A DNA stretch of 64,000 bases from a virus. Shown in pieces: positions 2,348 to 54,739 of this stretch (its first letter is position 1; each line of letters starts with the position of its first letter). The position numbers and the translations under genes are program-made. Where the stretch lies: the UHGV virus genome UHGV-0385297. One strand, 5' to 3'. The notes under the pieces were generated by a model, which did no database searches, had not been told where the DNA came from, and saw only the letters and a program-made list of their open reading frames with translations.

Positions 2348-2761
2348 TTGATTAGTATGAAATATGTTCCGAGAAATGAATATTTTGATTTGATTAGAAA
2401 ACTTGGTGTAAAGAAAACAGAAAGTGAATATGAGATTACAGATTTAGATTTATCTGTATATCCATTAAATGAAGATACAAAACGGATTGCAAATGTAAAC
2501 TTTATGGAAGAGACAAAAGATAAAAACGGGAATTATATGCTAAGTGGGCATTGGATGTCTGATTTAAGTTATCAGTTCGCAAAGAAATGTAAATTTGATT
2601 TAGTTCAGGTAGATGGATATAGTTCGTATGCTTATTCGGATGAACAGATGGCTGTGTTTACATATACGGAGGGTGATATTTATCTCACATTGTTTACTGA
2701 TAAAGCGAAATATGAAGCTGAAAAGGAAAGAACGATTAAATTTTATGAGGAGAAATATTGA
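2348..2761 (+). CDS. hypothetical protein
   Basis: 137-aa ORF; the 17-nt initiation region TGATTAGTATGAAATAT is shared with the gene at 3093. Confidence 0.5.
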   Translation: MISMKYVPRNEYFDLIRKLGVKKTESEYEITDLDLSVYPLNEDTKRIANVNFMEETKDKNGNYMLSGHWMSDLSYQFAKKCKFDLVQVDGYSSYAYSDEQMAVFTYTEGDIYLTLFTDKAKYEAEKERTIKFYEEKY

Positions 2762-2762
2762 T

Positions 2763-2924
2763 ATGAAAAAGAATACGGAATTATGTATAAGAGACAAAAA
2801 TGGATATATTGTAGGCTGGGAAGCTGGGTATTCAGATGATGAATTAAAACAATTGCTAGAGCGACATAAAGACGAAGGATGGCATATAAGTTATGCAGAA
2901 TATACAGAAGGAGGATTACGATAA
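2763..2924 (+). CDS. hypothetical small protein
   Basis: 53-aa ORF (MKKNTELC...) from an internal ATG of the listed 2613 ORF; fits non-overlapping gene packing. Confidence 0.4.
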   Translation: MKKNTELCIRDKNGYIVGWEAGYSDDELKQLLERHKDEGWHISYAEYTEGGLR

Positions 2925-3103
2925 TGGCTTATAAAAGAAAAACAAAGGATTGTTATGCAATCGAAGGGAATTGTGGTTACGGATGGGATATTGAATGTAA
3001 TTGTGAAGATAGAGCAGATGCAAAAGCACAGTTGAAGACATACAGAGAAAATGTAAATTATCCTGTGCGAATTAAGAAATGGAGAGAAAGGATTGATGAT
3101 TAG
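2924..3103 (+). CDS. hypothetical small Cys-rich protein
   Basis: ATG at 2924 after GAAGGAGG RBS (MAYKRK...). Confidence 0.45.
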   Translation: MAYKRKTKDCYAIEGNCGYGWDIECNCEDRADAKAQLKTYRENVNYPVRIKKWRERIDD

Positions 3104-4064
3104 TATGAAATATACAATAGACACATTAAGAGAGATTAACGCAAGATTTTGTGGTTCGCATATACTTATGAATTACGATGTAGATAAGGCAAATATGTAT
3201 GTCGAACTTATAAAAAATACACGATCTGAAAAGACTCCAAGTGTAGGTGATTGCGTTAGATATACAAATGAATATGGAGATTACTATGGAGCAGCTCATA
3301 TTGAAAAAGCAGATGCGAATGAAGTTTATATCTGTGAACAACCATATACACCTTTTGTTTATGAATATGAAGGCAGAATCAGTTGTAATACAAGTGGTGG
3401 AGCATGGACACATTTACCAACAAGAGAACTGAAATATATAGGTAAAATTGAAAAGAGATTTTGTGATTGGGGTAATTGTGGAGGCTGTGCAGATGGTGCT
3501 ATTGATTTTATAGCAGAAGTAAGTTTATGGGAATATGTAGATAGTAAAAATCCTTTTGTAAGTGAAAATGGATATAAGTTCACAACAAAGGATTTTGATA
3601 AACAGTATATATCATTCAATCCTAAAGATGATTCACCTTATGTATATTTTGGAGAAGGTTGTGTCTGGAAAAGTAAAACAGATTTATATGCTTATCTGAG
3701 AACATATAGAGCAGAAATTTTCAAAGGACATTGGCAGAATCAGTTCATTGTGTGGACTTGGAAAGAGAAACAGCATCATATATCACCAACGGAATTTGAT
3801 AGTCTTAAATTAGAAGAAGATACATTCCTGATGAATGGTGACATCATGAGATGTAAAAGAAAATATGATGAAATTACCCATACTGTACACACATATTATG
3901 TTTGGTATTGGGACGATCCAACTAAAGACTTCTTTGAGGCAAGTGCAGAACAGAATAAAATAAGAGAAAAATATTATACACTTGATAGAAAAATTCCAAC
4001 ATATATTGTTGCAAGAGAAGAATTAAAGTCTGGAATTGAAATTCCAAAACATAAGGAGGTGTAA
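3093..4064 (+). CDS. hypothetical protein
   Basis: 323-aa ORF; Cys cluster CDWGNCGGC; no family recognised. Confidence 0.55.
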   Translation: MMISMKYTIDTLREINARFCGSHILMNYDVDKANMYVELIKNTRSEKTPSVGDCVRYTNEYGDYYGAAHIEKADANEVYICEQPYTPFVYEYEGRISCNTSGGAWTHLPTRELKYIGKIEKRFCDWGNCGGCADGAIDFIAEVSLWEYVDSKNPFVSENGYKFTTKDFDKQYISFNPKDDSPYVYFGEGCVWKSKTDLYAYLRTYRAEIFKGHWQNQFIVWTWKEKQHHISPTEFDSLKLEEDTFLMNGDIMRCKRKYDEITHTVHTYYVWYWDDPTKDFFEASAEQNKIREKYYTLDRKIPTYIVAREELKSGIEIPKHKEV

Positions 4065-23630: not shown

Positions 23631-24182
23631 ATGCAATACATAATAACTAATGGTGAGAAATATTTAAAACAGAATCCTCAAGCTGGATATTTGGTTGTGG
23701 ATAATTTTAGTGATGCATCGATATGGCAAGTAAAAGAAAAGGCAAACAATGTAATAAAAACCTGTCCATTATGTAGGACTTATGATATGGAAACCATTGA
23801 ACTTACAACAAATGATATTGAAGATACTCCTATCAACTATGATTTAGAAGAAAAGATAGGAGAAATTGAACGGTTTACGGAACAACTTCAAAGCCGAAGA
23901 ATTATACTTCTAAAGTTGATACAGAGAGAAGATTTAAAAATTGTAGACATAGAACATGTTGCTGAGTTTAAAAATTTAGGAGCTGCGGCTGGCTATAAGA
24001 TTTACAAATTACTACATGACTGCAAATGCAGAAGAAGGGATTATAAAAATGAGCTGAGGCAGATAGATGGTATTCTTGGTAAAACATTAAATGCAAAAGG
24101 AATTATATGTATGAAAAAAGCAATAAAAAGTGTACAGGAACAGAAATATGAGCCTCGGATTTTAAAAGAATTATTTCAGTAA
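23631..24182 (+). CDS. hypothetical protein
   Basis: 183-aa ORF directly upstream of the integrase. Confidence 0.5.
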   Translation: MQYIITNGEKYLKQNPQAGYLVVDNFSDASIWQVKEKANNVIKTCPLCRTYDMETIELTTNDIEDTPINYDLEEKIGEIERFTEQLQSRRIILLKLIQREDLKIVDIEHVAEFKNLGAAAGYKIYKLLHDCKCRRRDYKNELRQIDGILGKTLNAKGIICMKKAIKSVQEQKYEPRILKELFQ

Positions 24183-24188
24183 AGGAGA

Positions 24189-25196
24189 ATGATTATGGAA
24201 GAGAAAAGTAGATATGCAACAAAGAAAAAAGGTAAAACAGAAGTTCAGCCATTATGGAATATGGAAGATATTAAAGCGGTTATAGAATGGTTTGAGAAAA
24301 AAGAAGATTGGGATGGATATTTTATCACCATGTTAGAGCTTCTTCTTGGTAGACGTATTGGTGATACTATCTCTATGAAGTGGTCTGATCTGTATTATGA
24401 AAACGGAAAGAGAAAAGAAGCAATTAACACTATTGTAGAGCAGAAGACAGGTAAAGTCACTGAACTGCCAGTAAGTCATATGACATATGAAGCAATGGAT
24501 ATTTATTTGGACCATACCGGCATTAATCCAATGCAGCATTATGATGAGTTTATTTTTAAATATGAAGCGAAAACTGCATGGGTTCAGCGTTATGATAATC
24601 CTGTGTATGATAATACAGACATAGAAGAATGGTGCAGATTCTTAGGAAAGGATTTTACGGAAGATCGTAAACAGAAAATTTTAAAGGATTTTGAAAAGCA
24701 AAAGGAGTATAAAACATTAGGTGGTTATTTGTATTATGAAGTAGAATGGAATGACATTGTAAAGTGGCAGTCTGATGATTATAGGAAGAAACTAAAACAG
24801 GCTGCGAAAGCTATTGGTATCACAACTCCAGTCAGTACGCATAGCCTTCGGAAGTCGCTAGGATACTGGGTGTATAAAATGCATATGTTCGATCCTAACT
24901 GTTTGCTGACATTACAGAAGCTCTTTAATCATGCAGATCTTCAGACAACTATAATTTATATTGGTTTAGTGGAGGAACAGAAGAGAAGATATTTGGAAGA
25001 TCATGGAGAGTTCATTAAGAACGTCCTGGCTGGCAAGGGAGATGAAATCATCAAAAACATGCCGGTCATTTCATTAAAATCAAACGACTTTGGAAATGTA
25101 ATTATGAATGTTATCAAGGGAATGCAGGAAGGCAAAGAAGCAGTTGAGGTTTACCAGATTGCTATTAACATGGCAAATGAGAAGCGAATTGCGTAA
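24189..25196 (+). CDS. int: tyrosine recombinase / phage integrase
   Basis: C-terminal catalytic signature HSLRKSLGYWVY...LFNHADLQTTIIYIG (H-x-x-R ... Y nucleophile); 335 aa. Confidence 0.8.
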   Translation: MIMEEKSRYATKKKGKTEVQPLWNMEDIKAVIEWFEKKEDWDGYFITMLELLLGRRIGDTISMKWSDLYYENGKRKEAINTIVEQKTGKVTELPVSHMTYEAMDIYLDHTGINPMQHYDEFIFKYEAKTAWVQRYDNPVYDNTDIEEWCRFLGKDFTEDRKQKILKDFEKQKEYKTLGGYLYYEVEWNDIVKWQSDDYRKKLKQAAKAIGITTPVSTHSLRKSLGYWVYKMHMFDPNCLLTLQKLFNHADLQTTIIYIGLVEEQKRRYLEDHGEFIKNVLAGKGDEIIKNMPVISLKSNDFGNVIMNVIKGMQEGKEAVEVYQIAINMANEKRIA

Positions 25197-25209
25197 AAGG
25201 AAAGCGGTG

Positions 25210-25695
25210 CTATTTTTTAGCATCGCTTAATTCCTTAATCTGTTCTATTAGCTTATCATATTTATCAGCTGATATAACAACATGTCGGCGCATAAAAGAG
25301 TGTACTATTTGGTTTGCAACGTCTTGAGCTATCTGCGCCATTTTTTCTTCATCTTTTGTATCGACATTTACTTTTATAGGAGTGCTTGGATCATTCGGAT
25401 TATTTAAACTAACAGTAAATGTTGATTCTTGAGATTTTTCTTTTGGATGGTCGATGTCAAAAACAATGTCAGGTGAATCGCACCATTTTGTTATATCATC
25501 ATTAATAAGAATATCATTTGGCGTACAGTGAAAAGTATTACATAAAGAAGTAAGGACATCGAAATTTATTCGTGTCGTTTCACTAGAGTATAATTGTTTT
25601 GCAGGATTATAATTTACACCTATTGCCTTAGCAAATTTGTTGATATTACCGTCAAACATGACATCTACATATTTTTTTATATTAAGTCTATACAT
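25210..25695 (-). CDS. XRE-family helix-turn-helix repressor (CI-like)
   Basis: the only convincing minus-strand gene; N-terminal HTH INKFAKAIGVNYNPAKQLYSSETTRINFDVLTSLCNTFHCTPNDIL; divergent from a consensus promoter and operator repeats. Confidence 0.75.
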   Translation of the reverse strand: MYRLNIKKYVDVMFDGNINKFAKAIGVNYNPAKQLYSSETTRINFDVLTSLCNTFHCTPNDILINDDITKWCDSPDIVFDIDHPKEKSQESTFTVSLNNPNDPSTPIKVNVDTKDEEKMAQIAQDVANQIVHSFMRRHVVISADKYDKLIEQIKELSDAKK

Positions 25696-25721
25696 GCATA
25701 ACCTCTATATAAAAGAGAAAA

Positions 25722-25815
25722 TTAACGTCTACAATAACAGTATACAATAAAAAAGTGAAAAAGTAAATTAATGTCTACAATAACACTTGACATTAATTGT
25801 AGAGTGTAATATACT
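25722..25815 (+). promoter_or_regulatory. divergent promoter and operator region
   Basis: two 18-bp direct repeats TTAAYGTCTACAATAACA (25722-25739, 25768-25785); inverted half-site ATTGTAGAG inside the spacer of a near-consensus promoter TTGACA (25787-92), 17 nt, TATACT (25810-15). Confidence 0.6.
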
Positions 25816-25861
25816 AAAATTGTTCAAAGAAATGAATACTAAAGGAAAGGAGGATGCAGAA

Positions 25862-26221
25862 GTGGAAGGCGGTTATAAGAAGTTTGATGTAGTATTAGTA
25901 GATTTTGGTGAAGAAATATTAGCTGGCGAACAAGGTGGCATTAGACCGGCAGTGATTGTACAGAATAATATAGGAAATAGGTATAGTGTTTCTACGGTTG
26001 TGATGCCGTTTACGTCACAACCCAAAAGTTTAAAGCAGTCTACGCATTCTCTTTTTCCTGCGAATGAAAAATATGGTTTAACAAAAGACTCCTATCTTTT
26101 AGGAGAATGTATTAGACAGGCTTCTGAACGCAGAATTATAAAAAAAATGGGAACCATTTCTGACAATGCTGGTAGAGAAGAAGTAAAAAGAGTTTACTTC
26201 TCAAATTGGGGAAATGACTAG
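25862..26221 (+). CDS. mazF: MazF/EndoA (PemK-family) endoribonuclease toxin homolog
   Basis: GGYKKFDVVLVDFGEE..GEQGGIRPAVIVQNNIGNRYSVSTVVMPFTSQ matches Bacillus EndoA [40 protein letters not shown]; GTG 25862 after AGGAGG; the listed TTG start at 25787 is the -35 box; ATG 25832 is an alternative start. Confidence 0.8.
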   Translation: MEGGYKKFDVVLVDFGEEILAGEQGGIRPAVIVQNNIGNRYSVSTVVMPFTSQPKSLKQSTHSLFPANEKYGLTKDSYLLGECIRQASERRIIKKMGTISDNAGREEVKRVYFSNWGND

Positions 26222-26230
26222 GAGGATATT

Positions 26231-26509
26231 ATGGAGTATATATTAATGACAGTAGAAGAGGCAAAGAAGATGGCAAAAAAAGATGCTGTTGTTCTTGTAG
26301 CGGTAAATGATTTAGAAAATCCCAAGGATATAAGTGAATTTTCAAAGAAGAGATTTTTTGAATGTGAGAAAATGATTAAGGAAGCAGAAACCATCGCATC
26401 GGTCTGTGATGATTTTATTAGGCAGCTTAGATGTTATACGGAAAGACAAGATGCATTTCCTGATCTAAGACTAAAAGGGAAGGAGAGTGTGATCCTTTTG
26501 CGGGAATAA
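26231..26509 (+). CDS. hypothetical protein downstream of mazF (possible cognate partner)
   Basis: 92-aa ORF 9 nt after mazF stop, GGAGG RBS; no antitoxin-family motif recognised. Confidence 0.45.
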   Translation: MEYILMTVEEAKKMAKKDAVVLVAVNDLENPKDISEFSKKRFFECEKMIKEAETIASVCDDFIRQLRCYTERQDAFPDLRLKGKESVILLRE

Positions 26510-26870
26510 AATAATACCGAACAAATGTTCGATAAAGTAGTTGACAGAACAAATGTTCGGCTATATAATAGCAAATGTAAAGAGATTCCAGAAATGGAAA
26601 CGGAAAATAAAAAAGACTACCATCTGATAATGTGGTTGCCGCCACAAAACAGATATACGGTAGTCTTAATACATAAGCACCCATCAAGATACTATGCAAT
26701 ACATATTATACTTTGTTTCATTTCATAAATCAAGTTAATCAAAGCAAGTATCTGCTGAAATTTTCCAATCTTTATTTTTACAACAAGAGAATATAAGCAT
26801 AGGGCTGTAGTCAAGCGGTTAATGCAATAAATTATTGCATTTATTTTTAATACAAAAAAATATATAAGGA

Positions 26871-27638
26871 GTGATTTTTATTAGTTCAAGAGCGTTAGTT
26901 GATAACTATTCAAAAGAAGAATTAGAAAAAATTGTTACTAATTCATTTTCTATGGCAGAAGTTATTGAAAAATTGGGATATAAAACAAGAAATGGAAGTA
27001 ATTTTAAAACAATTTTGAAACGAATTAAAGAATACAATATTAATTGTGATCATTTTAGAGTTCCTGAAAGAGTTGTAAGAACTTTTGAAAATACATTTTG
27101 TAAAGATAGTACCGCAAGTCAAAATACATTAAGAAGTGCTTTTATAAAAATAAGTGATAATACTTTTTGTAAAATATGTGGACAATCAAATATATGGAAT
27201 GACAAAGAACTTACAATGATTTTGGATCATATCGATGGGAATAATCATAATAATGTGATTAATAATTTAAGATGGATATGTCCCAATTGTAATAGTCAGT
27301 TACCGACCTTTGCTGGTAGAAATTTAAAAGAGAGAAAATCTCAAATTGATGGAAAAATAAAATATGTTCCAATGATAAAAAGAAAAAAGAACATGAAAAT
27401 ATGTCCTATTTGTAATATAAACGAAATTTCTATGAATAGTAAAATGTGTCTTGAATGTTATAACAAAGACAGAAGGAAAAACATTCCTCCAAAAGAAGAA
27501 TTAGAAAAATTAATATACATAAAATCTTTTGTAGAAATTGGCAAGAAATATAATGTTACAGATAATGCGGTAAGAAAATGGTGCAAATCTTATGGATTGC
27601 CGTTCAGATATGGTGAATTACATAAATATGGAGCCTAA
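26871..27638 (+). CDS. HNH endonuclease with Zn-ribbons and duplicated HTH-like segments
   Basis: HNH core ILDHIDGNNHNNVINNLRWICPNCNSQ; CxxC pairs; N-terminal SKEELEKIVTNSFSMAEVIEKLGYKTRNG resembles C-terminal PKEELEKLIYIKSFVEIGKKYNVTDNAV; start codon uncertain (GTG/ATT). Confidence 0.65.
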   Translation: MIFISSRALVDNYSKEELEKIVTNSFSMAEVIEKLGYKTRNGSNFKTILKRIKEYNINCDHFRVPERVVRTFENTFCKDSTASQNTLRSAFIKISDNTFCKICGQSNIWNDKELTMILDHIDGNNHNNVINNLRWICPNCNSQLPTFAGRNLKERKSQIDGKIKYVPMIKRKKNMKICPICNINEISMNSKMCLECYNKDRRKNIPPKEELEKLIYIKSFVEIGKKYNVTDNAVRKWCKSYGLPFRYGELHKYGA

Positions 27639-27686
27639 TTACATTACAAATCACACAATCGGTGGTCAATAAAAGACTGCCGGTAT

Positions 27687-27760
27687 GGATCGTTAGCTCA
27701 GTTGGTTAGAGCAATCGGCTCATAACCGATCGGTCACAGGTTCAAGTCCTGTACGATCCA
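27687..27760 (+). tRNA. tRNA-Met (anticodon CAT; elongator type or Ile-lysidine)
   Basis: manual cloverleaf: acceptor GGATCGT/ACGATCC, D-arm GCTC-AGTTGGTTA-GAGC, anticodon stem ATCGG/CCGAT loop CTCATAA, T-arm ACAGG-TTCAAGT-CCTGT; no encoded CCA. Confidence 0.8.
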
Positions 27761-27786
27761 TTGACGAAAAAGGAGGGAAAAGGAAA

Positions 27787-28401
27787 ATGGACTATGTAAT
27801 CAGAAATAATAGGGGAGTTTATATCAAAATCGATTCAGGTGGTAGACCTGTCTCATGCAATTTCAAAGATAGAACACTGATGGATCGCAACAAAGCAAGA
27901 AATGTTTTAAATTCGCTTCCAAAACATATGAAGAAAATGAAATTCTTCATGGAAGCCATTCCTGAAATCCCTCCGAGAGTAATTGAGACGCCACAGACGT
28001 ATAAACCATCTGAGAATATTACTCGTTGGGTGGAACAATTTGGAACCTGCGGAGATATTTTCAACTCGGCTGTAAAACGAAGCAATGAGCTGATCGGTAT
28101 TCTGTATGATCTTGATAAGGGATTGCTCAATATCCTTCATTCAATCGAGATTGAGAAGCCGAAAGATTTATATACAGGCTGGCAGCTCTATAAGGCTATC
28201 CGTGAAAACCGTACTCAGCGTAGAGAAACAAAAGATGAAATCCAGATTATCCAGAATGTTCTGACGAATATCAATCCAGAATGTGTTCAACGTGAACGGA
28301 TTCAAAAAGCCGTGGATGGACTTTTCCATAGAAAATATACATATCGAATCATCGAAGGAAACGAAGATGATGAGAGTGAAACAGAAATACATAACAATTA
28401 G
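27787..28401 (+). CDS. hypothetical protein
   Basis: 204-aa ORF after AAGGAGGGAAAAGG RBS. Confidence 0.55.
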   Translation: MDYVIRNNRGVYIKIDSGGRPVSCNFKDRTLMDRNKARNVLNSLPKHMKKMKFFMEAIPEIPPRVIETPQTYKPSENITRWVEQFGTCGDIFNSAVKRSNELIGILYDLDKGLLNILHSIEIEKPKDLYTGWQLYKAIRENRTQRRETKDEIQIIQNVLTNINPECVQRERIQKAVDGLFHRKYTYRIIEGNEDDESETEIHNN

Positions 28402-28412
28402 GTAGGTTCAAT

Positions 28413-30671
28413 ATGGGGAAAGTAGAAAAAATAAATCTGAATGAAAAACAGATGGAATTAGTTACATATTATTCTGAAAATGATATGGCGAGATTAAAAC
28501 GGATTTGTAATCCAATCATTAATATGAAGAACGTAGATCAGAAGGATTATGATGACTTGTACAGTGATGCACTGAAAGTTCTTCTGGAAAGTGTTCAGAC
28601 ATTTGATGAAACAGCAGATTGTTCCTTTAATACATTTCTTACAGGAAATATTAAACGGTCATTCTATGATTGGAGCCGTGATCAGCTGACTTGGAAGCGG
28701 TGCAACCTGGAATATGAAACAGATGAAAATGGAGAGATTAAAAAAGATAAGAATGGAAAACCAATAAAAAAGAAAGTCTATGATGTTTCTATGGATGTTC
28801 CATTGGAAGATGGATCTGATTTAAGAGAAAAAATCCCGTCCAATTTCAGTGTAGAGACAGAACTTGGATTAAATGGAGATGATACTGTAGAAAAGGTAAA
28901 TATACTTCTTGATAGTATGCCACGGTTACAGAAGCAAATTACTATTTTGAAAATGAGGAAAGTTCCTGTAGAAAAAATTAAGAAGATCTTAAATATATCG
29001 CAAAGCGATTATGAAAACGCAGTAGAGCGGATTAAGAGAAATGAAAATATGGAAATGTTTTTAAAAGACACGAAATATAATATGGAGGAATATAATATGA
29101 AAGACAGAGTAATTGCTATTAGCGAATCCGAAGATTACAGAATGGACAAATTACCAATGTTCACATTATTGCAGCAGAAAAAAGATGGTGACATTAACTG
29201 TAAATACATTTTACAGAGAAAACCATTTCAGTGGTCAGAAGAAGAAGCGAATCGTTATTTCTGTAGAATATTAAGTTCTCTTCCTGTTCCTGAAATCGTT
29301 TTATGTGAGCAAAAAGTAAAGGAATTGATTATTGCATATTTAATTGATGGTTTACAGCGTTTATCTTATGCGGAGGCATTTAGAAATAATCGTATTAAAA
29401 TTGGAAGTGTAGGTGCAGAAAGACACTTAATTGAATATAGAGAATATTCTTTAGACGAAAACGGAAATCGAATTTTAGATGACAACGGATTTCCAACCTA
29501 CGAATTAAAAATATGTGATGTTATTGGAAAATACTACAAAGATCTTCCTGATGAATTAAAAAAGAGATTTGATGTATTTAATTTCAATGTGACTAAGTTT
29601 TTTAACTGCACGGATCAGCAAATTGCGGATCACCTTCGCGACTACAACAACCACTCATCTATGAACAAGGAGCAGTTGGGACTGACCAAGATTACTACCG
29701 TAACAGCTGGGAAAATTAAGAAAATCTCTGAGAAGAATATGTTTTTCAAAAATTGCTGTAAAATCACTACAACTAATGAGACTAAAGGTAAACTGGAACG
29801 TGTAGTTGCCGAAGCAATTATGCTTTTGTTCCATAAGGACGATTGGAAAGCTAAATTGGAAAATGCCTATAAGTATGTAGATGAAAATGCAACAGACGAA
29901 GAGTTTGAACAGCTTAATTCTGATTTAAACCGTTTGGAATTAGCAATTGGAGAAAATAATAAGGAAGTTACCAAGTTATTTACTCCAGCTGCTATTCCTA
30001 TGTGGGTGGCGGTATTCAATGAGTTTACAAAGTATAACATTGAAGATAGCAGATTTGTAGACTTCCTTAATGCATATGTAACCGATTTAAAGGATCGTAC
30101 AGTAGATGGTGTAAGCATGAAAACTTTTAAATCAGAACAGAGTAAAAAGAGAACTACCATCATGGGAAAGATCAATCTGTTGGTTACTCTTATGAAAGAT
30201 TATTTACATATTGAAGATACAGAAGAAACAGAAAATACATATGAAGAAACAACTGATGAAAAAGTAACTGAAAACGAGAATAATACAGTAGAAGAGACAA
30301 CAGAAGATAATGTTACTACAGAAGAAATGGAATCAGTAGTAACTGAATCACAGTCAGAAGAAGATCATGAGTTACAGTTCGTAAAAGAGGTAGCTGATCC
30401 AAATGTAGAACAGGAAGATATTGAACTGTATAAGGATTTTATTGATGACTATCTTAAGTTAGACTCCTGTGTATACAAAGTTGGTATGCCGGTATTGTTA
30501 GCACTTATGGCATATGCTTGTAATGCAGAGAAAGACGAAGAGTTTAGTGAATGGCTCAATGAAATGGAAAAACAGCATAGAATTTTCACAGGTTCAGAGA
30601 AAGATAATTATGAGAAGTTGAAAGCAGAATTTCTTCAGTTTTTAGATTCTCATAACAATAAAGCAGCATAA
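28413..30671 (+). CDS. fusion protein: N-terminal ECF-like sigma-70 domain (regions 2 and 4) + DUF262/ParB-like domain + acidic C-terminal tail
   Basis: region-2-like DLYSDALKVLLESVQTFDETADCSFNTFLTGNIKRSFYDWSRDQ; region-4-like LQKQITILKMRKVPVEKIKKILNISQSDYENAVERIKRN; then YILQRKPFQWSEEEANRYFCRILSSLPVPEIVL...AYLIDGLQRLSYAEAF (DUF262 QR..W / DGQQR signature); T/E-rich tail; one uninterrupted 752-aa ORF. Confidence 0.65.
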   Translation: MGKVEKINLNEKQMELVTYYSENDMARLKRICNPIINMKNVDQKDYDDLYSDALKVLLESVQTFDETADCSFNTFLTGNIKRSFYDWSRDQLTWKRCNLEYETDENGEIKKDKNGKPIKKKVYDVSMDVPLEDGSDLREKIPSNFSVETELGLNGDDTVEKVNILLDSMPRLQKQITILKMRKVPVEKIKKILNISQSDYENAVERIKRNENMEMFLKDTKYNMEEYNMKDRVIAISESEDYRMDKLPMFTLLQQKKDGDINCKYILQRKPFQWSEEEANRYFCRILSSLPVPEIVLCEQKVKELIIAYLIDGLQRLSYAEAFRNNRIKIGSVGAERHLIEYREYSLDENGNRILDDNGFPTYELKICDVIGKYYKDLPDELKKRFDVFNFNVTKFFNCTDQQIADHLRDYNNHSSMNKEQLGLTKITTVTAGKIKKISEKNMFFKNCCKITTTNETKGKLERVVAEAIMLLFHKDDWKAKLENAYKYVDENATDEEFEQLNSDLNRLELAIGENNKEVTKLFTPAAIPMWVAVFNEFTKYNIEDSRFVDFLNAYVTDLKDRTVDGVSMKTFKSEQSKKRTTIMGKINLLVTLMKDYLHIEDTEETENTYEETTDEKVTENENNTVEETTEDNVTTEEMESVVTESQSEEDHELQFVKEVADPNVEQEDIELYKDFIDDYLKLDSCVYKVGMPVLLALMAYACNAEKDEEFSEWLNEMEKQHRIFTGSEKDNYEKLKAEFLQFLDSHNNKAA

Positions 30672-30697
30672 AAAATACATAGAAAGAGGTAAAAGAT

Positions 30698-31087
30698 ATG
30701 GCAAAATTGACGGGTTATTATGAAGTGGCAGAAACGATTCAGAGTGGTGGTAGATATTATTACGCAATCTACGAGGATTATGTTTGTTATCAGGTAGGAG
30801 ATAAGATTTTAGTTTCAGGAGCATGTCACAATATCTTGGAAATTACTTCTATTCTTACACCAGAAGAAGTAAAAGGCAAGGTAAATATCACAGCAGAAGT
30901 TATTTGTAAAGTTGATACAGAAGCATATGAAAAACGTGTTGAAGAACGTAGAAGAAAGATGAAACTTAAGAAAGAATTGGATAAAAGATTAAAAGAAATC
31001 GTTAACGAAGGGAAATATGAATGGGCAGCAGAGAAGAATTCTGAGTTTGCTAAGATGCTGGAAGAATATAAGAAGATGGGAGAATAA
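30698..31087 (+). CDS. hypothetical protein
   Basis: 129-aa ORF after AGAGGTAAAAG RBS; ends ...KKMGE via the GGAGAATAA junction. Confidence 0.5.
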   Translation: MAKLTGYYEVAETIQSGGRYYYAIYEDYVCYQVGDKILVSGACHNILEITSILTPEEVKGKVNITAEVICKVDTEAYEKRVEERRRKMKLKKELDKRLKEIVNEGKYEWAAEKNSEFAKMLEEYKKMGE

Positions 31088-31092
31088 TACAT

Positions 31093-31683
31093 ATGGAACA
31101 CGTAAATAACATTATGAGTAAAGCAGATGTGGAAAGATTAAAATCAGATAATTATCAGCCTATTACAGTTACTGCAGGTTATCCAATTACAAGTCATGCA
31201 GTCGGTGGTGGAATTTCTGTTGAAAAGTTTGCGGAAAATATAAAGGGTTCTCTTTCTTTATCTATTAAAAAAGAATCTAATGTAAAAATAAAAATCAAAG
31301 ATGTAAATATCATTGTAGAGAATAAAGTCGTAGAAGTAACTTTTACAGATGGAGATAAACAGAAATCAGTTTGCCGAGAGCCAGATGTGTTCAGTTTAGA
31401 GATGGCAATTTCTATTTGTATCACAAAACATGTACTTGGTGGAAGCAGTTTATATAATAAGGCAGTTCGCAATGGTCTTAAGTGTTATGAAAATAAGTTA
31501 AAGAAAGCAGAAACCGAAGAAAAAGAGAAAGAAAGAATTGAAAAACGCAAGGCGAAGTTAGCTGCTTATAAGAAGCGTAGAGCTGAGAAACGAAAAGAAG
31601 AACAGATCGAAACTCAGAAAGAAGCATATCTGAGAGCGATGAGAGATTTTAATAAGGAACTTTCTGAAGCTAGTTGCGAATAA
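31093..31683 (+). CDS. hypothetical protein with K/E-rich C-terminal helix
   Basis: 196-aa ORF. Confidence 0.5.
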   Translation: MEHVNNIMSKADVERLKSDNYQPITVTAGYPITSHAVGGGISVEKFAENIKGSLSLSIKKESNVKIKIKDVNIIVENKVVEVTFTDGDKQKSVCREPDVFSLEMAISICITKHVLGGSSLYNKAVRNGLKCYENKLKKAETEEKEKERIEKRKAKLAAYKKRRAEKRKEEQIETQKEAYLRAMRDFNKELSEASCE

Positions 31684-32515: not shown

Positions 32516-34579
32516 ATGGATGGATTTATGGAGTTTAAGGAAGCTTTACAGGAACATTTCAATGAAATGCAGAAGGATGCAGACAAATTATTCGAGGTGT
32601 TAGTAGATAAGGATGAGCTGTGGAATACTTATTTAAACAGTTTTCCAGCGGGTACTAACCCTATCTACCGTGAGAGAACTGAACATGATTGTAGCTGCTG
32701 TAGACATTTTATTAAGAATATTGGCGTGGCAGTAGTTATTAAGGATAACCAGATGCATACAATTTGGGAACTTAAATTAAATGACCCTACATATCAGACA
32801 GTTGCTAATGCGCTGGATAAATTCGTAAAAGCTCATGCAGTTTCCGATATTTATTTGAGTAAGTTCAAAAAGATTGGAACAGATTATAATTTTGAAGAAA
32901 TCAATGGTAAAGCTCATAGATGGGATCATTTCTTCTTAGAGCTTCCAGATAAGTTTGTAAATCGTACCAGTTCTTCTAACGAAGAAATCAAAGGTCAGTT
33001 CCGTGATACCAGAAATGTGTTTAAGCGTTCTTTAGACGAAATTACTATGGATGCAGTTGATACGGTATTAGAGTTGATCAATTCTAATACTTTATATAAA
33101 GGTGAGGAATGGAAAACTGCTCTGACTGAGTTCAAGAAATACAAAAAGGAATATGACAAGTTAACAACAGCAACAGATAAGGCTCTGTACACTTGGGAAA
33201 AATCCATTAAAGCAGGCATGGCGATTGGTCGTATTAGAAACCATTCTATTGGCACTCTGCTTGTAAATATCAGTGAAGATATGGATCTCGATTTAGCAGT
33301 TAAAAAATATGAGCAGATTGTAGCCCCCGCCAGCTATAAGCGCCCAAAGGCAATTTTCACTAAAAAGATGTTAGAGGACGCAAAGAAGACCATTACTGAG
33401 CTTGGATATATGGATTCATTACAGAGAAGATTTGCAACTTTGAATGATATTTCAGTAAATAATGTTCTGTTCTCAAATAAGAGTGCTGCAAGAAGAATGG
33501 TTGGTGCAGATGATATTTTTGGCCAGATGGAAAAGGATGTTACTGTAAATCCTAAGAAGTTCTCTAAAGTAGAAGAGATTTCTGCACAGGATTTTATTGA
33601 CAAGGTGCTTCCAACTGCAAAAGAAATCGAGGCATTTGTAGAGAATAAACATGAGAAGAACTTTGTATCGTTGATCGCACCAGTAAATCCAGATGCCAAA
33701 ACTATGTTTAAATGGAACAACGGTTTATCCTGGGCGTATAGTGGCAATATTACCGATTCAGACATGAAACAGAATGTTAAAGCTGCAGGAGGTAATGTTA
33801 ACGGTGTGCTTAGATTTTCCATCATGTGGAATGAGGCGCAAAATGATAATAGCGATCTTGATGCTCATTGTATTGAACCAGATGGTAATGAAATCTATTT
33901 TAGCAATTGCAGGAAACCACAGATGTCTAGGATGGGTGGGCAGCTTGATATTGACATTACTAGACCAATGGAACAGATGAAAGGTAAACCTTCAGTAGAG
34001 AATATTACATGGGCAGATATGTCACGTATGAAACCAGGCGTTTATAAGTTTTTTGTTAATCAGTATGCAGCGAGAGGAAGTAAGGGATTCAAGGCAGAAG
34101 TTGAGTTTAATGGTGAGATTTATGCATTTGAATACAATCAGCCTGTGCATGGTGATGTTCAGGTTGCAGAAGTAACACTTGATGCCAATGGTAACTTCTC
34201 AATTAAAGAGAAATTAGCAGGCAATTCATCTATTTCGAGTCGTGAGATTTGGGGTGTAAATACAAATCAGTTTGTCCCTGTATCAGTAATTAGTTACAGT
34301 CCAAATTACTTTGATGAGCAGGACGGAATTGGTCATAGACATTTATTTTTCTTCTTGAAAGATTGTGTAAATACTGAAGAACCAAATGGATTTTATCTTG
34401 AATTTTTAGACAATGATTTAATGAAACATAAGAGAGTATTTGAAGCATTAGGTGCTAAGTGTCATGTAGAAGATACAGACGATCAGTTATCAGGCATTGG
34501 TTTTTCTATGACTAAGAGAGCGGAACTTGTAATCAAAGTAAAAGGTGCAACTGAGCGTATTATGAAGATTAAATTTTAA
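32516..34579 (+). CDS. large hypothetical protein (687 aa) with HDCSCCRH cluster
   Basis: long uninterrupted ORF, coupled start; no family recognised by eye. Confidence 0.6.
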   Translation: MDGFMEFKEALQEHFNEMQKDADKLFEVLVDKDELWNTYLNSFPAGTNPIYRERTEHDCSCCRHFIKNIGVAVVIKDNQMHTIWELKLNDPTYQTVANALDKFVKAHAVSDIYLSKFKKIGTDYNFEEINGKAHRWDHFFLELPDKFVNRTSSSNEEIKGQFRDTRNVFKRSLDEITMDAVDTVLELINSNTLYKGEEWKTALTEFKKYKKEYDKLTTATDKALYTWEKSIKAGMAIGRIRNHSIGTLLVNISEDMDLDLAVKKYEQIVAPASYKRPKAIFTKKMLEDAKKTITELGYMDSLQRRFATLNDISVNNVLFSNKSAARRMVGADDIFGQMEKDVTVNPKKFSKVEEISAQDFIDKVLPTAKEIEAFVENKHEKNFVSLIAPVNPDAKTMFKWNNGLSWAYSGNITDSDMKQNVKAAGGNVNGVLRFSIMWNEAQNDNSDLDAHCIEPDGNEIYFSNCRKPQMSRMGGQLDIDITRPMEQMKGKPSVENITWADMSRMKPGVYKFFVNQYAARGSKGFKAEVEFNGEIYAFEYNQPVHGDVQVAEVTLDANGNFSIKEKLAGNSSISSREIWGVNTNQFVPVSVISYSPNYFDEQDGIGHRHLFFFLKDCVNTEEPNGFYLEFLDNDLMKHKRVFEALGAKCHVEDTDDQLSGIGFSMTKRAELVIKVKGATERIMKIKF

Positions 34580-37800: not shown

Positions 37801-38898
37801 ATGAAAGACATTAAGATTGTGATAGGTGCTAATTTTGGAGATTGTGGAAAAGGATTAATGACAGATTATTTCTCACAGAAACCTAATAGTATTGTTGTTT
37901 GTTCAAATGGTGGTGCTCAGAGAGGACATACCGTAACAACGCCTGATGGAATCAGACATGTCTTTCATCATTTTGGATCTGGAACATTCACCCATGCAAG
38001 TACATATTTATCTGAGGATTTTATTGTTAATCCAATTATTTTTAAGCAGGAATATGATGAGTTGATGAAATTAGGATATATCCCGAATGTTTATATCAAT
38101 CAAGATTGTATGTTGACTACACCTTTTGATATGATGGCAAATCAGATTATAGAGGAAAATCGTGGAAAAAATAAACATGGTAGTTGTGGCTTGGGAATTT
38201 TTGAAACTATCAAAAGATATAAAGCCGGTATAACTGATGTAGATGATCATATCAGGGAATATTACTTAGAACAATTTGAAAGAGAGAATATTATATTAAC
38301 AGATGAATGGTCAAGAATATTCCTTGATAATGGTATATTTGAACACTTTTTAGATGATTGGGATTTTATGAATAATCACTCATTGGCTATATCAGATAAT
38401 TATTTCTTAAATCAGTTTGATAATATTGTATTTGAAGCTGCACAAGGTTTATTGCTTGATCAGAATAACACAGAATATTTTCCACATCTAACACCATCTA
38501 ATACAGGTATTAAAAATCCCAAGAGAATAATTGAAAATGGTGAATGGAATGAAGAGATAAACATTGAAACTTGTTATGTGTCTCGTACATATCTTACACG
38601 GCATGGTACAGGAAAATTTCCATCAGAGTGTGATAAAAATCAGATCAACAAATATATTTTTGATAAAACTAATATACCAAATCCATTCCAGGATACATTG
38701 AGATATGGAACATTAGATTTAAAAGAATTGTATAACAGATGCAGTAAGGATGTAGGAGATTTTGGAAATAAGAAATCATTAGCACTTATGCATTGCAATG
38801 AATGTGACTGGGATGACGAAGAATTGATTAGCCTATTTAAAGGTTGGAATATATATTATTCTGATGGAGAAACAAGAGAAGATATTAGATTGAGGTAA
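37801..38898 (+). CDS. adenylosuccinate synthetase (PurA) family protein, short form (PurZ-type candidate)
   Basis: VIGANFGDCGKGLMTDYF..VVCSNGGAQRGHTV matches PurA P-loop GTQWGDEGKGKIVDLL..RYQGGHNAGHTL; HGSCGLGI ~ GTTGRGIGP; FEAAQGLLLDQNNTEY ~ FEGAQGTLLDIDHGTY; VSRTYLTRHGTGKFP ~ STRVGAGPFP; 365 aa versus about 430 for bacterial PurA. Confidence 0.75.
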   Translation: MKDIKIVIGANFGDCGKGLMTDYFSQKPNSIVVCSNGGAQRGHTVTTPDGIRHVFHHFGSGTFTHASTYLSEDFIVNPIIFKQEYDELMKLGYIPNVYINQDCMLTTPFDMMANQIIEENRGKNKHGSCGLGIFETIKRYKAGITDVDDHIREYYLEQFERENIILTDEWSRIFLDNGIFEHFLDDWDFMNNHSLAISDNYFLNQFDNIVFEAAQGLLLDQNNTEYFPHLTPSNTGIKNPKRIIENGEWNEEINIETCYVSRTYLTRHGTGKFPSECDKNQINKYIFDKTNIPNPFQDTLRYGTLDLKELYNRCSKDVGDFGNKKSLALMHCNECDWDDEELISLFKGWNIYYSDGETREDIRLR

Positions 38899-54385: not shown

Positions 54386-54421
54386 GAGAATAAATAAGTG
54401 GCTGAGAAATCAGTCACATCT

Positions 54422-54494
54422 AGCGAATTAGTATAATCAGGTAGTACACTGAGGTTTGATCTCAGAAGTATCGGTTCAAATCCGGTATTCGCCG
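54422..54494 (+). tRNA. tRNA-Gln (anticodon TTG)
   Basis: manual cloverleaf: acceptor AGCGAAT/ATTCGCC (1:72 A-C mismatch), U8, D-arm GTAT-AATCAGGTA-GTAC, anticodon stem CTGAG/CTCAG loop GTTTGAT, T-arm ATCGG-TTCAAAT-CCGGT. Confidence 0.75.
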
Positions 54495-54641
54495 TTGGCT
54501 CTGATTCATCTGTGATGTGGAAAGTCGCAGAACGGTGGCAAGAGGATGTAAAACTTTAAAAACAAATTTCCCATCGGATTGTTATTGCTTGGTTGATGCG
54601 CAGACTTAAGCAACAGAGCCACTTAATAAAACGTTTATGGT

Positions 54642-54710
54642 TTCTCATTGGTGTAATAGGAAGCACGGCAGCTCACTCTGCAAAACTTGGTTCGAGTCCA
54701 AGATGAGGAA
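54642..54710 (+). ncRNA. tRNA-like element with non-canonical anticodon arm (possible pseudo-tRNA)
   Basis: acceptor TTCTCAT/ATGAGGA, perfect T-arm CTTGG-TTCGAGT-CCAAG, D-stem only GTG/CAC, anticodon region folds as 4-bp stem with 6-nt loop CTCACT. Confidence 0.35.
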
Positions 54711-54739
54711 GTAATAAAAATAAGAAGGAGTGATAAATA

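Follow-up and report, generated by a model that had tools for sequence, protein, structure and literature searches.

A sigma-70-type protein fused to a ParB-DUF262 module, encoded behind a predicted LexA-controlled promoter in phages of Lachnospiraceae

Sigma factors are normally under the control of separate anti-sigma proteins, while the known roles of ParB-superfamily NTPases are those of a DNA clamp or of a sensor of invading DNA coupled to a nuclease or RNase. What, then, would a phage do with a single protein that joins the two? The 64-kb stretch of viral DNA analysed here (the window) carries such an ORF (28413..30671, + strand, 752 aa), which a first-pass annotation had read as an ECF-like sigma-70 domain fused to a DUF262 domain, a combination for which it knew of no precedent. 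A sequencing error that merges two genes can be rejected, as the ORF is unbroken across independent assemblies and conserved; it is also under purifying selection. Both domain calls are correct, and in our searches of the literature we came across no account of a sigma fused to DUF262. A megablast search of the locus against GenBank phages gave no match, and databases label the family only "DUF262 domain-containing protein" or "sigma-70 family".

The sigma half spans residues ~11-216 and consists of a σ2 domain with regions 2.1-2.4 (28443..28697, +; aa 11-95), a linker (28698..28880, +; aa 96-156) and a σ4 helix-turn-helix domain with regions 4.1-4.2 (28881..29060, +; aa 157-216). The linker contains a β-hairpin insert, with its secondary structure taken from the predicted model, and a region-3.2-like motif, VSMDVPLEDGSDLREKIPS, that a profile alignment matches to "vSLetPigeeedshLgDfI" of SigA region 3.2. 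Long linkers with a motif of this type are typical of group 1-3 sigmas. The description as ECF-like therefore holds only in part: the minimal σ2 and σ4 composition fits, but the ~60-aa linker carries the region-3.2-like motif, and the TIGR02937 score of 37 bits falls below the curated cut-off of 42.9. NCBIfam matches of this half were to generic sigma-70, SigI and FliA models, and a single-sequence search of PDB sequences returned no match. We saw no known anti-sigma domain near the fusion gene, either in the window or in the neighbourhoods of its relatives; the DUF262 module, whether fused or encoded by the next gene, and a 204-aa partner protein described below are candidates only for that role. 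Binding of RNA polymerase by the fusion protein, like its set of target promoters, is predicted from sequence.

The second half begins with a ParB-DUF262 domain (29133..29666, +; aa 241-418) that carries the motifs QRKPFQW (residues 268-274), DGLQR (312-316) and LRDYN (408-412), and its NTP-site residues are conserved. Following it is a domain (29667..30212, +; aa 419-600) that is all-helical in the predicted model (pLDDT >90) and is covered by the phrog_2598 and NsnA alignments; judged by position and helical content rather than by direct superposition, it is probably a DNA-binding domain of the ParBDB type. A disordered, acidic T/E-rich linker of varying length comes next (30213..30356, +; aa 601-648; pLDDT <50), in which the differences among close relatives are only non-synonymous; the fusion occurs in length variants of 747 and 752 aa. 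The protein ends in an orphan helical domain of ~100 aa (30357..30668, +; aa 649-752) with confidently modelled helices, in which only one Trp (W714) is invariant. Among the representatives, 59 of the 76 fused and 57 of the 73 unfused proteins have this domain, and no relatives of it were found in PDB sequences or Pfam. The structure model carries no information on contacts between the domains.

The DUF262 assignment rests on Pfam, PADLOC and fold comparison because PDB sequences yielded no match, either to a single-sequence search with the DUF262 half or to a profile of the DUF262 and helical regions; the GmrSD_N score of the window protein is below the curated cut-off. This half is closest to NsnA of the Menshen system (PADLOC E 3.1e-8, residues 11-284 of a 522-aa fragment), and is also close to BrxU and SspE. 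Like NsnA, GmrSD/BrxU, SspE and DndB, the fusion has a ParB-DUF262 domain with QRxxxW, DGxQR and FxxxN motifs and then a helical domain (PMC12065111). Does it belong to any of these systems? It shares the DUF262 domain and its QR and DGxQR motifs with the GmrSD/BrxU/SspE type IV restriction enzymes, but the DUF1524 His-Me (HNH) nuclease had no match in the whole protein, in its C-terminal pieces or in 23 C-terminal domains, and the C-terminal domain is an all-helical orphan. We therefore reject this identity. The fusion does resemble NsnA in combining ParB-DUF262 with ParBDB; in Menshen, however, genes for the NsnB ABC-ATPase and the NsnC effector lie immediately downstream of NsnA (PMC12065111), and we found no such neighbours in the loci examined and no AAA_15/DUF3696 gene near the fusion in relatives L010-L012, L014 and L015, so a Menshen (NsnABC) system is rejected too. 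Moreover, NsnA has been reported with no sigma-related N-terminal domains other than ones that resemble region 1.1, whereas the fusion has a full σ2-σ4 sigma. Nor is it a canonical ParB CTPase. Those proteins have a GERRxR-type CTP motif where ours has the DUF262-type DGLQR, ParB and Noc were only weak Foldseek matches (E >0.1), and no ParA-like gene occurs in the loci examined. To our knowledge, DUF262 modules have so far been found in defence systems and DndB-type regulators and never as regulators of sigma factors.

The first-pass annotation had proposed looking for other sigma-DUF262 proteins, and the architecture turned out to be widespread: clustering at 50% identity gave 680 clusters. 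Of the 150 best of these, about half are fused; where sigma and DUF262 are encoded by separate genes, as in L017, L073, L076 and L086-L088, the DUF262 gene directly follows the sigma gene. A genome scan seeded with a tight alignment placed the fusion family in at least 80 genomes, nearly all Lachnospiraceae and cultured strains among them, always in a phage or prophage; the same scan with a single protein as query gave no match. The cultured carriers include Lachnospiraceae bacterium 28-4 and COE1, Eubacterium plexicaudatum ASF492, [Clostridium] symbiosum ATCC 14940 and Lacrimispora sp. HJ-01. The family is thus no curiosity. More distant are the stand-alone DUF262 proteins of Bacillus phages (H2-H7), near which no sigma gene was found.

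In the window and its relatives, the fusion gene belongs to the control region, with integrase and repressor, of a phage of >100 kb and does not adjoin a lysis cassette; the source virus is a large temperate gut phage. The integrase is a tyrosine recombinase (24189..25196, +; Pfam Phage_integrase E 2.5e-13), beside which lies a 160-aa CI/Cro-type HTH repressor-like gene (25210..25695, -; Pfam HTH_26 E 6e-8). The synteny of integrase and fusion is kept in L001, L010-L012 and L014. Further along is a σA-type promoter, TTGACA-17 nt-TATAAT (26541..26569, +), which matches the consensus at 12/12 positions and is the best promoter match in 25100-31200. Two LexA (Cheo) boxes accompany it: box 1, CGAACAAATGTTCG (26518..26531, +), is a GAAC-N4-GTTC match, and box 2, AGAACAAATGTTCG (26546-26559, +), lies inside the promoter spacer. 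These are the only two GAAC-N4-GTTC sites in the 64-kb window. GAACN4GTTC is the operator consensus of Firmicutes LexA, and GAAC-N4-GTT[CT] sites that overlap promoters have been described (PMC4234289).

The arrangement is general. A LexA box is present upstream in 55 of 66 non-redundant loci (P about 2.5e-78, a value that overstates the evidence because the loci are not phylogenetically independent) and is located within a promoter-like element in 48 of the 66; the other 11 have no detectable box. Because the fusion gene is almost always found behind a host LexA operator, the protein is probably part of the switch that wakes Lachnospiraceae prophages.

Between the LexA promoter and the fusion gene, which lies 1.85 kb downstream of it, are an HNH gene and a tRNA. 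The HNH-type endonuclease ORF (26871..27638, +; 255 aa) has zinc ribbons and weak Pfam HNH_3 and DZR_2 matches; it separates the promoter from the partner gene, is absent at the same position in L010 and L014, and is probably a mobile insertion. The tRNA-Met (CAT; 27686..27761, +; ARAGORN) falls inside the putative operon. The 204-aa partner ORF (27787..28401, +) ends 11 nt before the fusion gene and has homologues immediately before the fusion gene in L001 (E 8e-10), L010 (E 2e-19) and L014 (E 1e-44). It had no match in Pfam, PHROG, NCBIfam or PADLOC, and we tested it as a DUF262-like protein, which it is not. We found no + strand terminator between the LexA promoter and the fusion gene, and on that sole support we assume that the genes are co-transcribed and predict that the LexA-controlled σA promoter drives the fusion. 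Genes downstream of the fusion in the window had no Pfam match, and a 687-aa ORF among them had none in PADLOC. The features that say most about function are the LexA-box promoter, the conserved partner gene, the split sigma/DUF262 pairs and the spread through Lachnospiraceae prophages.

How might such a protein work? With moderate confidence, we favour a phage sigma factor that is derepressed in the SOS response, serves the lytic programme and is gated or targeted by its NTP-dependent DNA-sensor module. In a lysogen, host LexA bound to the operators in or beside the consensus σA promoter would keep the operon, in the window the partner and fusion genes, switched off. DNA damage would inactivate LexA and let the host σA-RNA polymerase transcribe the operon, and the newly made sigma could then redirect core RNA polymerase to lytic or late phage promoters. 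The attached ParB-DUF262 and ParBDB module would bind nucleotide and DNA and serve as a built-in regulator in place of a separate anti-sigma or co-factor. We infer that it does so in one of two ways: by keeping the sigma inactive until an NTP or DNA signal arrives, or by tethering it to phage DNA. The nucleotide-gated late regulator and the modification-sensing device suggested in the first-pass annotation are both compatible with known DUF262 modules (PMC12065111). A bolder version, which we put forward tentatively and regard as doubtful, is that the protein represents a new class of initiation factor, in which a ParB-superfamily NTP switch reads DNA (its identity, modification or replication state) to license promoter engagement and, together with host LexA, forms a two-key circuit of damage and DNA signal that controls prophage induction in Lachnospiraceae.

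Several known systems share parts of this proposal. ECF41 and ECF42 are ECF-type sigmas with fused C-terminal regulatory extensions. Like them, the fusion is a minimal σ2 and σ4 sigma with a covalent extension, and in those proteins the extension regulates, replacing a separate anti-sigma; unlike them, it carries as its extension an NTP-binding ParB-DUF262/ParBDB module and an orphan domain, and it is phage-borne, predicted to be LexA-controlled, equipped with a region-3.2-type linker motif and below the TIGR02937 cut-off. Phage late sigma factors include SPO1 gp28/gp34, PBSX Xpf and T4 gp55, the last with the gp45 clamp. A sigma-like factor coupled to a DNA-loaded clamp offers a functional analogy for a DNA-tethered sigma, but none of these factors is known to be fused to a ParB-superfamily NTPase, and those of T4 are separate proteins with another clamp fold. 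T4-type factors are an example of a phage sigma that redirects host RNA polymerase (PMC7824862). On clostridial mobile elements, UviA/TcdR-type sigmas are SOS-inducible, have a LexA site in the regulatory region, drive a large secreted protein and have holin-type genes nearby (PMC4459074, PMC10467148). The fusion, too, would be an alternative sigma with a LexA site on a clostridial mobile element, but UviA and TcdR are small, stand-alone proteins without DUF262, and our NCBIfam search detected no specific kinship of the sigma half to them. LexA-governed prophage switches are also found in GIL01 and in coliphage 186 (Tum). CTXφ has a switch governed by host LexA as well (PMC4689574). As in all three, we propose that host LexA directly represses the phage gene that launches lytic development; what LexA acts on in those phages is a promoter under repressor control, a co-repressor system or an antirepressor, and here it is a sigma-sensor fusion. 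Finally, in type III-E CRISPR an RpoE-like sigma (NF041236) is the output of a nucleic-acid-sensing system, as we propose for the fusion, but it is freed by proteolysis of a partner instead of being fused to the sensor. PDB 9n9q, a type III-E CRISPR-associated sigma, was among the matches of the fusion protein; the NF041236 match itself was insignificant (E 0.03).

Lachnospiraceae are among the dominant bacterial families of the human gut, and we know of few regulators of prophage induction in them. The conserved LexA-box promoter leads to a testable model of how prophages in major gut commensals could be induced by inflammation and by drugs that damage DNA, and a σA promoter that contains a LexA box and has a sigma-DUF262 gene behind it is a simple genomic marker. 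If the two-key reading is true, prophage induction across the family would answer to damage and DNA signals. A covalent sigma-ParB-like protein would join the sigma and ParB fields as a compact "DNA-sensing sigma".

Could the fusion instead be a conflict or defence device carried by prophages? The DUF262 and ParBDB module would then detect DNA that is foreign or modified, such as that of a superinfecting phage or a competing element, and the sigma would respond by turning on an operon with toxic or lytic products (holin and endolysin, perhaps a cassette of the bacteriocin or tailocin type), much like the sigma released in type III-E CRISPR or UviA driving the bacteriocin BCN5. The nearest relatives of the DUF262 half, NsnA, BrxU and SspE, point this way, as DUF262 modules serve as invader-DNA sensors (PMC12065111), and some bacteriocin loci are induced by the SOS response and encode a sigma of their own (PMC4459074). 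The fusion gene is divergent, in 29-43 prophage-type loci, from a short operon that encodes a small ORF, a ~920-aa protein, a virion protein, a holin and an endolysin; in L022, host housekeeping genes directly follow the fusion gene, so this element might be a small cassette rather than a complete prophage. We nevertheless consider a defence role unlikely: the loci examined have neither NsnB/NsnC nor a nuclease or other defence partner close to the fusion, the fusion in the window and its relatives is not beside a lysis cassette, and LexA repression would leave undamaged cells without the sensor, a poor fit to an infection sentinel.

A sigma that reads modification, with DUF262 recognising the phage's own modified bases and so confining sigma-dependent transcription to phage DNA, is an idea already raised in the first-pass annotation. 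GmrSD and SspE recognise modified DNA through DUF262 (PMC12065111), and T4 Alc, cited in PMC7824862, is a precedent for a modification-sensing transcription factor. Among the window's genes are one for a PurZ-like enzyme (phrog_1211, E 7e-66) and one for a DNA methyltransferase, and several methylases adjoin the fusion in relatives. Even so, we hold this quite improbable, since the score with the NCBIfam PurZ model is 40.8 where the cut-off is 300, no DatZ/MazZ-like (Z-genome) companions were recognised, the loci seen have no modification gene in common, and many family prophages reside in and replicate with the host chromosome. Alternatively, the protein may not be a working sigma at all, its N-terminal domain serving only to bind DNA on behalf of a DndB-like repressor or of a ParB-like protein for the maintenance, partition or replication control of a plasmid-like prophage. 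KorB, a ParB-superfamily protein, is a transcription regulator. So is DndB (PMC12065111); in L015 the fusion gene overlaps the end of a RepA_N/DUF6017 replication-initiator gene with an MrpR-type resolvase upstream, and the window has a recombinase and a PemK toxin gene near the fusion, typical maintenance genes of plasmid-prophages. This strikes us as very improbable: simple DNA binding would need neither a conserved σ2, which binds core polymerase and the -10 element, nor a region-3.2 motif, the NTP motif is not of the ParB type, no locus examined has a ParA-type gene, and LexA control suits induction more than maintenance.

A point against the preferred phage sigma is that no cognate promoter emerged: k-mer enrichment in the window found only ribosome-binding sites. 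An EM motif, AGAGAA-TATA, is not enriched in the window's intergenic regions and is significant in the prophage subgroup.

The reading frame at 28413..30671 (+) starts with ATG and encodes 752 aa without interruption, and all of the peptides quoted in the first-pass annotation are present in its translation. The single uninterrupted ORF described there is intact in five distinct near-identical contigs, none of which carries an internal stop in this gene. Gene copies of 97-98% identity occur on IMG/VR viral contigs of 82-206 kb, and the 90%-identity cluster of the protein has 161 members drawn from many samples. Substitutions in the folded parts are biased towards synonymous changes (pN/pS 0.37 in the sigma part, 0.08 in the DUF262 and helical domain, 0.24 in the C-terminal domain), and both linkers vary freely. 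The 161-member cluster, the stop-free contigs and the synonymous bias rule out an assembly artefact as the source of the ORF. The window has the look of a large phage: 110 of its 121 ORFs lie on the + strand, GC ranges from 0.29 to 0.37, and PHROG matches include a sliding clamp, a DnaB-type helicase, an RNA ligase, a methyltransferase and a PurZ-like enzyme.

An AlphaFold2 model built with 65 diverse homologues as input is confident (mean pLDDT 85.4, pTM 0.64) and divides the protein into several parts. Residues 11-95 form a three-helix domain and residues 157-216 a helical domain, with a linker containing a β-hairpin between the two; aa 222-235 are disordered, aa 241-600 are a mixed α/β domain with helices after it, aa 605-647 are acidic and disordered, and aa 649-748 form a helical bundle. 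In its N-terminal third the protein is a sigma factor of the sigma-70 family in minimal σ2-linker-σ4 form, with all the sequence and fold hallmarks of that family. Pfam Sigma70_r2 scores above its cut-off, aa 43-210 match PHROG 351 ('RNA polymerase sigma factor'), aa 40-209 match TIGR02937, and a profile of 31 homologues matches solved sigma factors (best E 2.4e-10) in an alignment that spans the region-3.2 motif 'SLDxPi..D..L.D.I'. These matches bear out the sigma call of the first-pass annotation. Its 'ECF-like' label holds for composition, but the TIGR02937 match falls under the curated ECF cut-off, and we would call the longer linker group-1-3-like.

The middle part is a ParB-DUF262 domain, as had also been proposed. 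GmrSD_N matches the isolated segment at E 1.4e-6, under the gathering score, and matches 44 of the 65 long homologues (best E 8e-18). The nearest PADLOC entry is NsnA of the Menshen system (E 3e-8), and BFVD matches are DUF262/GmrSD_N proteins from many viruses. DUF262 is defined by the motifs QRxxxW, DGxQR and FxxxN (PMC12065111); all three are found here, as QRKPFQW (aa 268-274), DGLQR (aa 312-316) and LRDYN (aa 408-412). The key motif residues vary little or not at all among 150 cluster representatives, and the module conserves the NTP site. A DNA-binding domain termed ParBDB comes after DUF262 in NsnA, GmrSD, SspE and DndB (PMC12065111), and from its position we infer that the helical stretch at aa 419-600 is probably a ParBDB. 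Neither PDB sequences nor Pfam yielded a relative of the C-terminal helical domain. The same 'DENG-x4-D-x-NG' β-hairpin occurs in the sigma linker (aa 100-135; 28710-28817) and in a DUF262 insert (aa 339-369; 29427-29519), and the DUF262 profile also matches aa 100-208 (independent E 7e-4); the repeat could reflect a duplication within the protein, or the two parts may share an interaction hairpin.

An exhaustive search against 1.84 billion cluster representatives returned 680 clusters at E ≤ 1e-3 and 212 at E ≤ 1e-30. Among the best 150 of the 680, the check for other sigma-DUF262 architectures suggested earlier yielded 59 clusters with sigma, DUF262 and C-terminal domains and 17 with sigma and DUF262 only; 57 combine DUF262 with the C-terminal domain without sigma, and 16 the DUF262 module alone. 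Public names of these proteins are limited to 'RNA polymerase sigma factor (sigma-70 family)', 'hypothetical protein' and 'DUF262 domain-containing protein'. A scan of one genome per species gave at least 80 loci, overwhelmingly in Lachnospiraceae, with hosts that include Lacrimispora, Blautia, Roseburia, Eubacterium, Lachnospiraceae bacterium 28-4 and COE1, E. plexicaudatum ASF492 and C. symbiosum ATCC 14940; some loci lie on complete chromosomes. These loci comprise 64 fused genes and nine split pairs, and in all nine a sigma gene of ~200 aa lies directly upstream of the DUF262 gene (for the pair at locus L017, hhalign probability 99.8%, E 1.7e-29). Other 'DUF262-only' loci are mostly distant paralogues or truncated at contig ends. 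The pairing is obligate, and because fused genes and split pairs both occur, the two modules are a functional pair that has been fused or parted in evolution.

Locus L012 (53% identity) lies on a 932,943-bp metagenomic scaffold, and L022 and L073 lie in MAGs labelled Bacteroides or Bacteroidales, although they have the gene content of Lachnospiraceae prophages. Mis-binning or chimeric assembly seems likely in these cases. Loci L010-L012, the relatives at 53% identity, also encode, upstream of the integrase, a stand-alone 172-aa GmrSD_N (DUF262) protein (2606-3124 / 3123-3641). It matches the DUF262 profile of the fusion (E 2.4e-7), and nothing in the window corresponds to it.

The gene lies in an integrative-phage context. 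When we compared the window with relatives at 53%, 32% and 27% identity, the conserved block ahead of the fusion comprised a tyrosine recombinase, a Cro/CI-type HTH gene, a PemK toxin, small ORFs and a partner of 200-240 aa, which in the window is the 204-aa ORF at 27787..28401 (+). Just upstream of the integrase, the window encodes a 183-aa paralogue of this partner (23631-24182, +; 25% identity, E 1.6e-8), and no family could be assigned to either protein. The PemK/MazF-type toxin gene (25787-26221, +; E 2e-18) lies in the phage control region, keeps its synteny with the integrase and the fusion in relatives, and is followed by a 92-aa ORF (26231-26509, +) with no Pfam match. Between the toxin gene and the divergent CI-like HTH gene (25210-25695, -), in the segment 25696-25830, the 13-mer GTCTACAATAACA is directly repeated, with copies at 25727 and 25773. 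The second copy abuts the -35 of a TTGACA-17-TATACT promoter (11/12 to σA), whose spacer holds a partial inverted copy, TTAATTGTAGAG. Judged by sequence, this looks like an operator/promoter switch of classical arrangement, and the layout implies that the true start codon of the PemK ORF is the ATG near 25834 and not the TTG at 25787.

In most of the Lachnospiraceae genomes that carry it, the fusion gene sits in a prophage, divergent from a conserved operon (L022-L088, - strand, upstream of the fusion; for example L044 445-7850). This operon begins with a 57-79-aa ORF bearing the motif FGGxIYxSDF...RFDExC and continues with a ~920-aa protein (phrog_8308) and phrog_4051; its last genes encode a virion structural protein (phrog_2729), a Holin_LLH holin and an endolysin. 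Directly downstream of the fusion in L022, housekeeping genes of the host begin. A AGAGAAnTAaAtAtTA motif is found ahead of the divergent operon in Lachnospiraceae prophages. In the prophage subgroup, the motif AGAGAA-n-TA..AT.TA, 47-110 nt upstream of this operon, is significant (log-likelihood 77.3, compared with 46.6 ± 3.1 for shuffled sequences), with no enrichment in the intergenic regions of the window. At L015 (5073-8244; 27% identity) the context is plasmid-like, not phage: a RepA_N/DUF6017 replication-initiator gene overlaps, at its end, with the fusion gene, which is downstream of an MrpR-type resolvase.

The fusion gene lies behind a LexA-operator promoter. The LexA operator of Bacillus and clostridia is GAAC-N4-GTTC (PMC4234289), and the upstream regions of the loci show TTGACA-N17-TATAAT with this box in the spacer, often with one or two more copies. 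The whole 64-kb window holds just two such sites, CGAACAAATGTTCG at 26518-26531 and AGAACAAATGTTCG at 26546-26559, the latter within a perfect TTGACA-17-TATAAT. This promoter is the top match within the scanned 6-kb region, and we found no + strand terminator between it and the fusion. At least one box lies within 2.4 kb upstream of the sigma module in 55 of 66 non-redundant loci, two or more in 34, and a box within a promoter-like element in 48. The 1.09 Mb of sequence contains 130 boxes, of which 71 lie in the 400 nt upstream (2.4% of the sequence), for a binomial P of 2.5e-78 that is too optimistic because the 66 loci are related; their proteins are just 25-50% identical, and the surrounding intergenic DNA is otherwise unconserved. 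Large phages form a subgroup in which the boxes stand at the head of the operon holding the partner gene and the fusion. Inserted between the promoter and the tRNA, partner and fusion genes, the window has an HNH-type endonuclease gene with zinc-ribbon motifs (26871-27638, +), which is probably a homing endonuclease, since L010 and L014 lack it at this position, and a tRNA-Met (CAT) predicted by ARAGORN at 27686-27761, within the putative LexA-controlled operon.

We favor, with moderate confidence, the interpretation that the fusion is a LexA-controlled phage sigma factor with a built-in DUF262/ParBDB regulator. DNA damage would inactivate LexA and allow host σA polymerase to transcribe the gene, and the new sigma would then bring core polymerase to lytic or late promoters of the phage. 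The regulator might inhibit the sigma in cis, with the binding of NTP and/or DNA ending the inhibition, or might tether it to phage DNA; these specific roles are tentative. A regulatory role is suggested by the split forms, which keep the sigma-then-DUF262 order; the usual gene order is sigma, then anti-sigma. It is also suggested by the known function of DUF262+ParBDB as a DNA sensor, coupled to an NTPase, through which the effector attached to it is activated (PMC12065111). UviA is a precedent for a LexA-controlled sigma on a clostridial mobile element (PMC4459074).

Alternatively, the fusion could be a prophage-borne conflict device, in which DUF262 senses DNA of foreign origin and the sigma turns on an operon of the lysis or bacteriocin-like type. 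The affinity of the DUF262 half to NsnA/BrxU and the adjoining holin-endolysin operon are consistent with this, but the sensor would itself be under LexA repression and no defence partner was found, making it unlikely. Somewhat less probable is the modification-sensing sigma of the first-pass annotation: PurZ is unconfirmed (40.8 bits against an NCBIfam model cut-off of 300), and the loci share no modification gene. It overlaps with our favored interpretation, as one possible form of 'DNA signal'. We give least credence to a ParB-like maintenance or repressor protein using the sigma fold for DNA binding only, which the RepA_N and resolvase context of L015 would fit, because σ2 and region 3.2 are conserved and ParA is absent.

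Membership in known families was also considered. GmrSD/BrxU/SspE was rejected because the fusion has no DUF1524 nuclease, Menshen because NsnB and NsnC are missing, and canonical ParB because DGxQR replaces GERRxR and there is no ParA. The first-pass annotation knew of no sigma coupled to a ParB-like domain, and our full-text literature searches, in a corpus that is incomplete and so does not prove novelty, likewise found no description of a sigma-DUF262 or sigma-ParB-like fusion; the Menshen survey reported just sigma region-1.1-like N-terminal domains in NsnA. We place the fusion with two kinds that are already known, sigmas that have a regulatory module fused to them and phage switches under LexA control, with a real chance of a new mechanism.

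Elsewhere in the window, a 687-aa protein (32516-34579, +) belongs to the widespread phage family phrog_1735/DUF8224 (E 1e-265) and is also found downstream of the fusion in L011. The best match of the PurA-like enzyme (37801-38898, +) is phrog_1211 ('2-aminooxy adenylosuccinate synthetase', PurZ type; E 7e-66), which hints, at the level of sequence, that the genome contains 2-aminoadenine (Z); 10 neighbouring ORFs lack a Pfam match, so none of them was recognised as DatZ- or MazZ-like. ARAGORN also places a tRNA-Gln (TTG) at 54421-54495 and a 71-nt tRNA-like gene, without an anticodon call, at 54641-54711.
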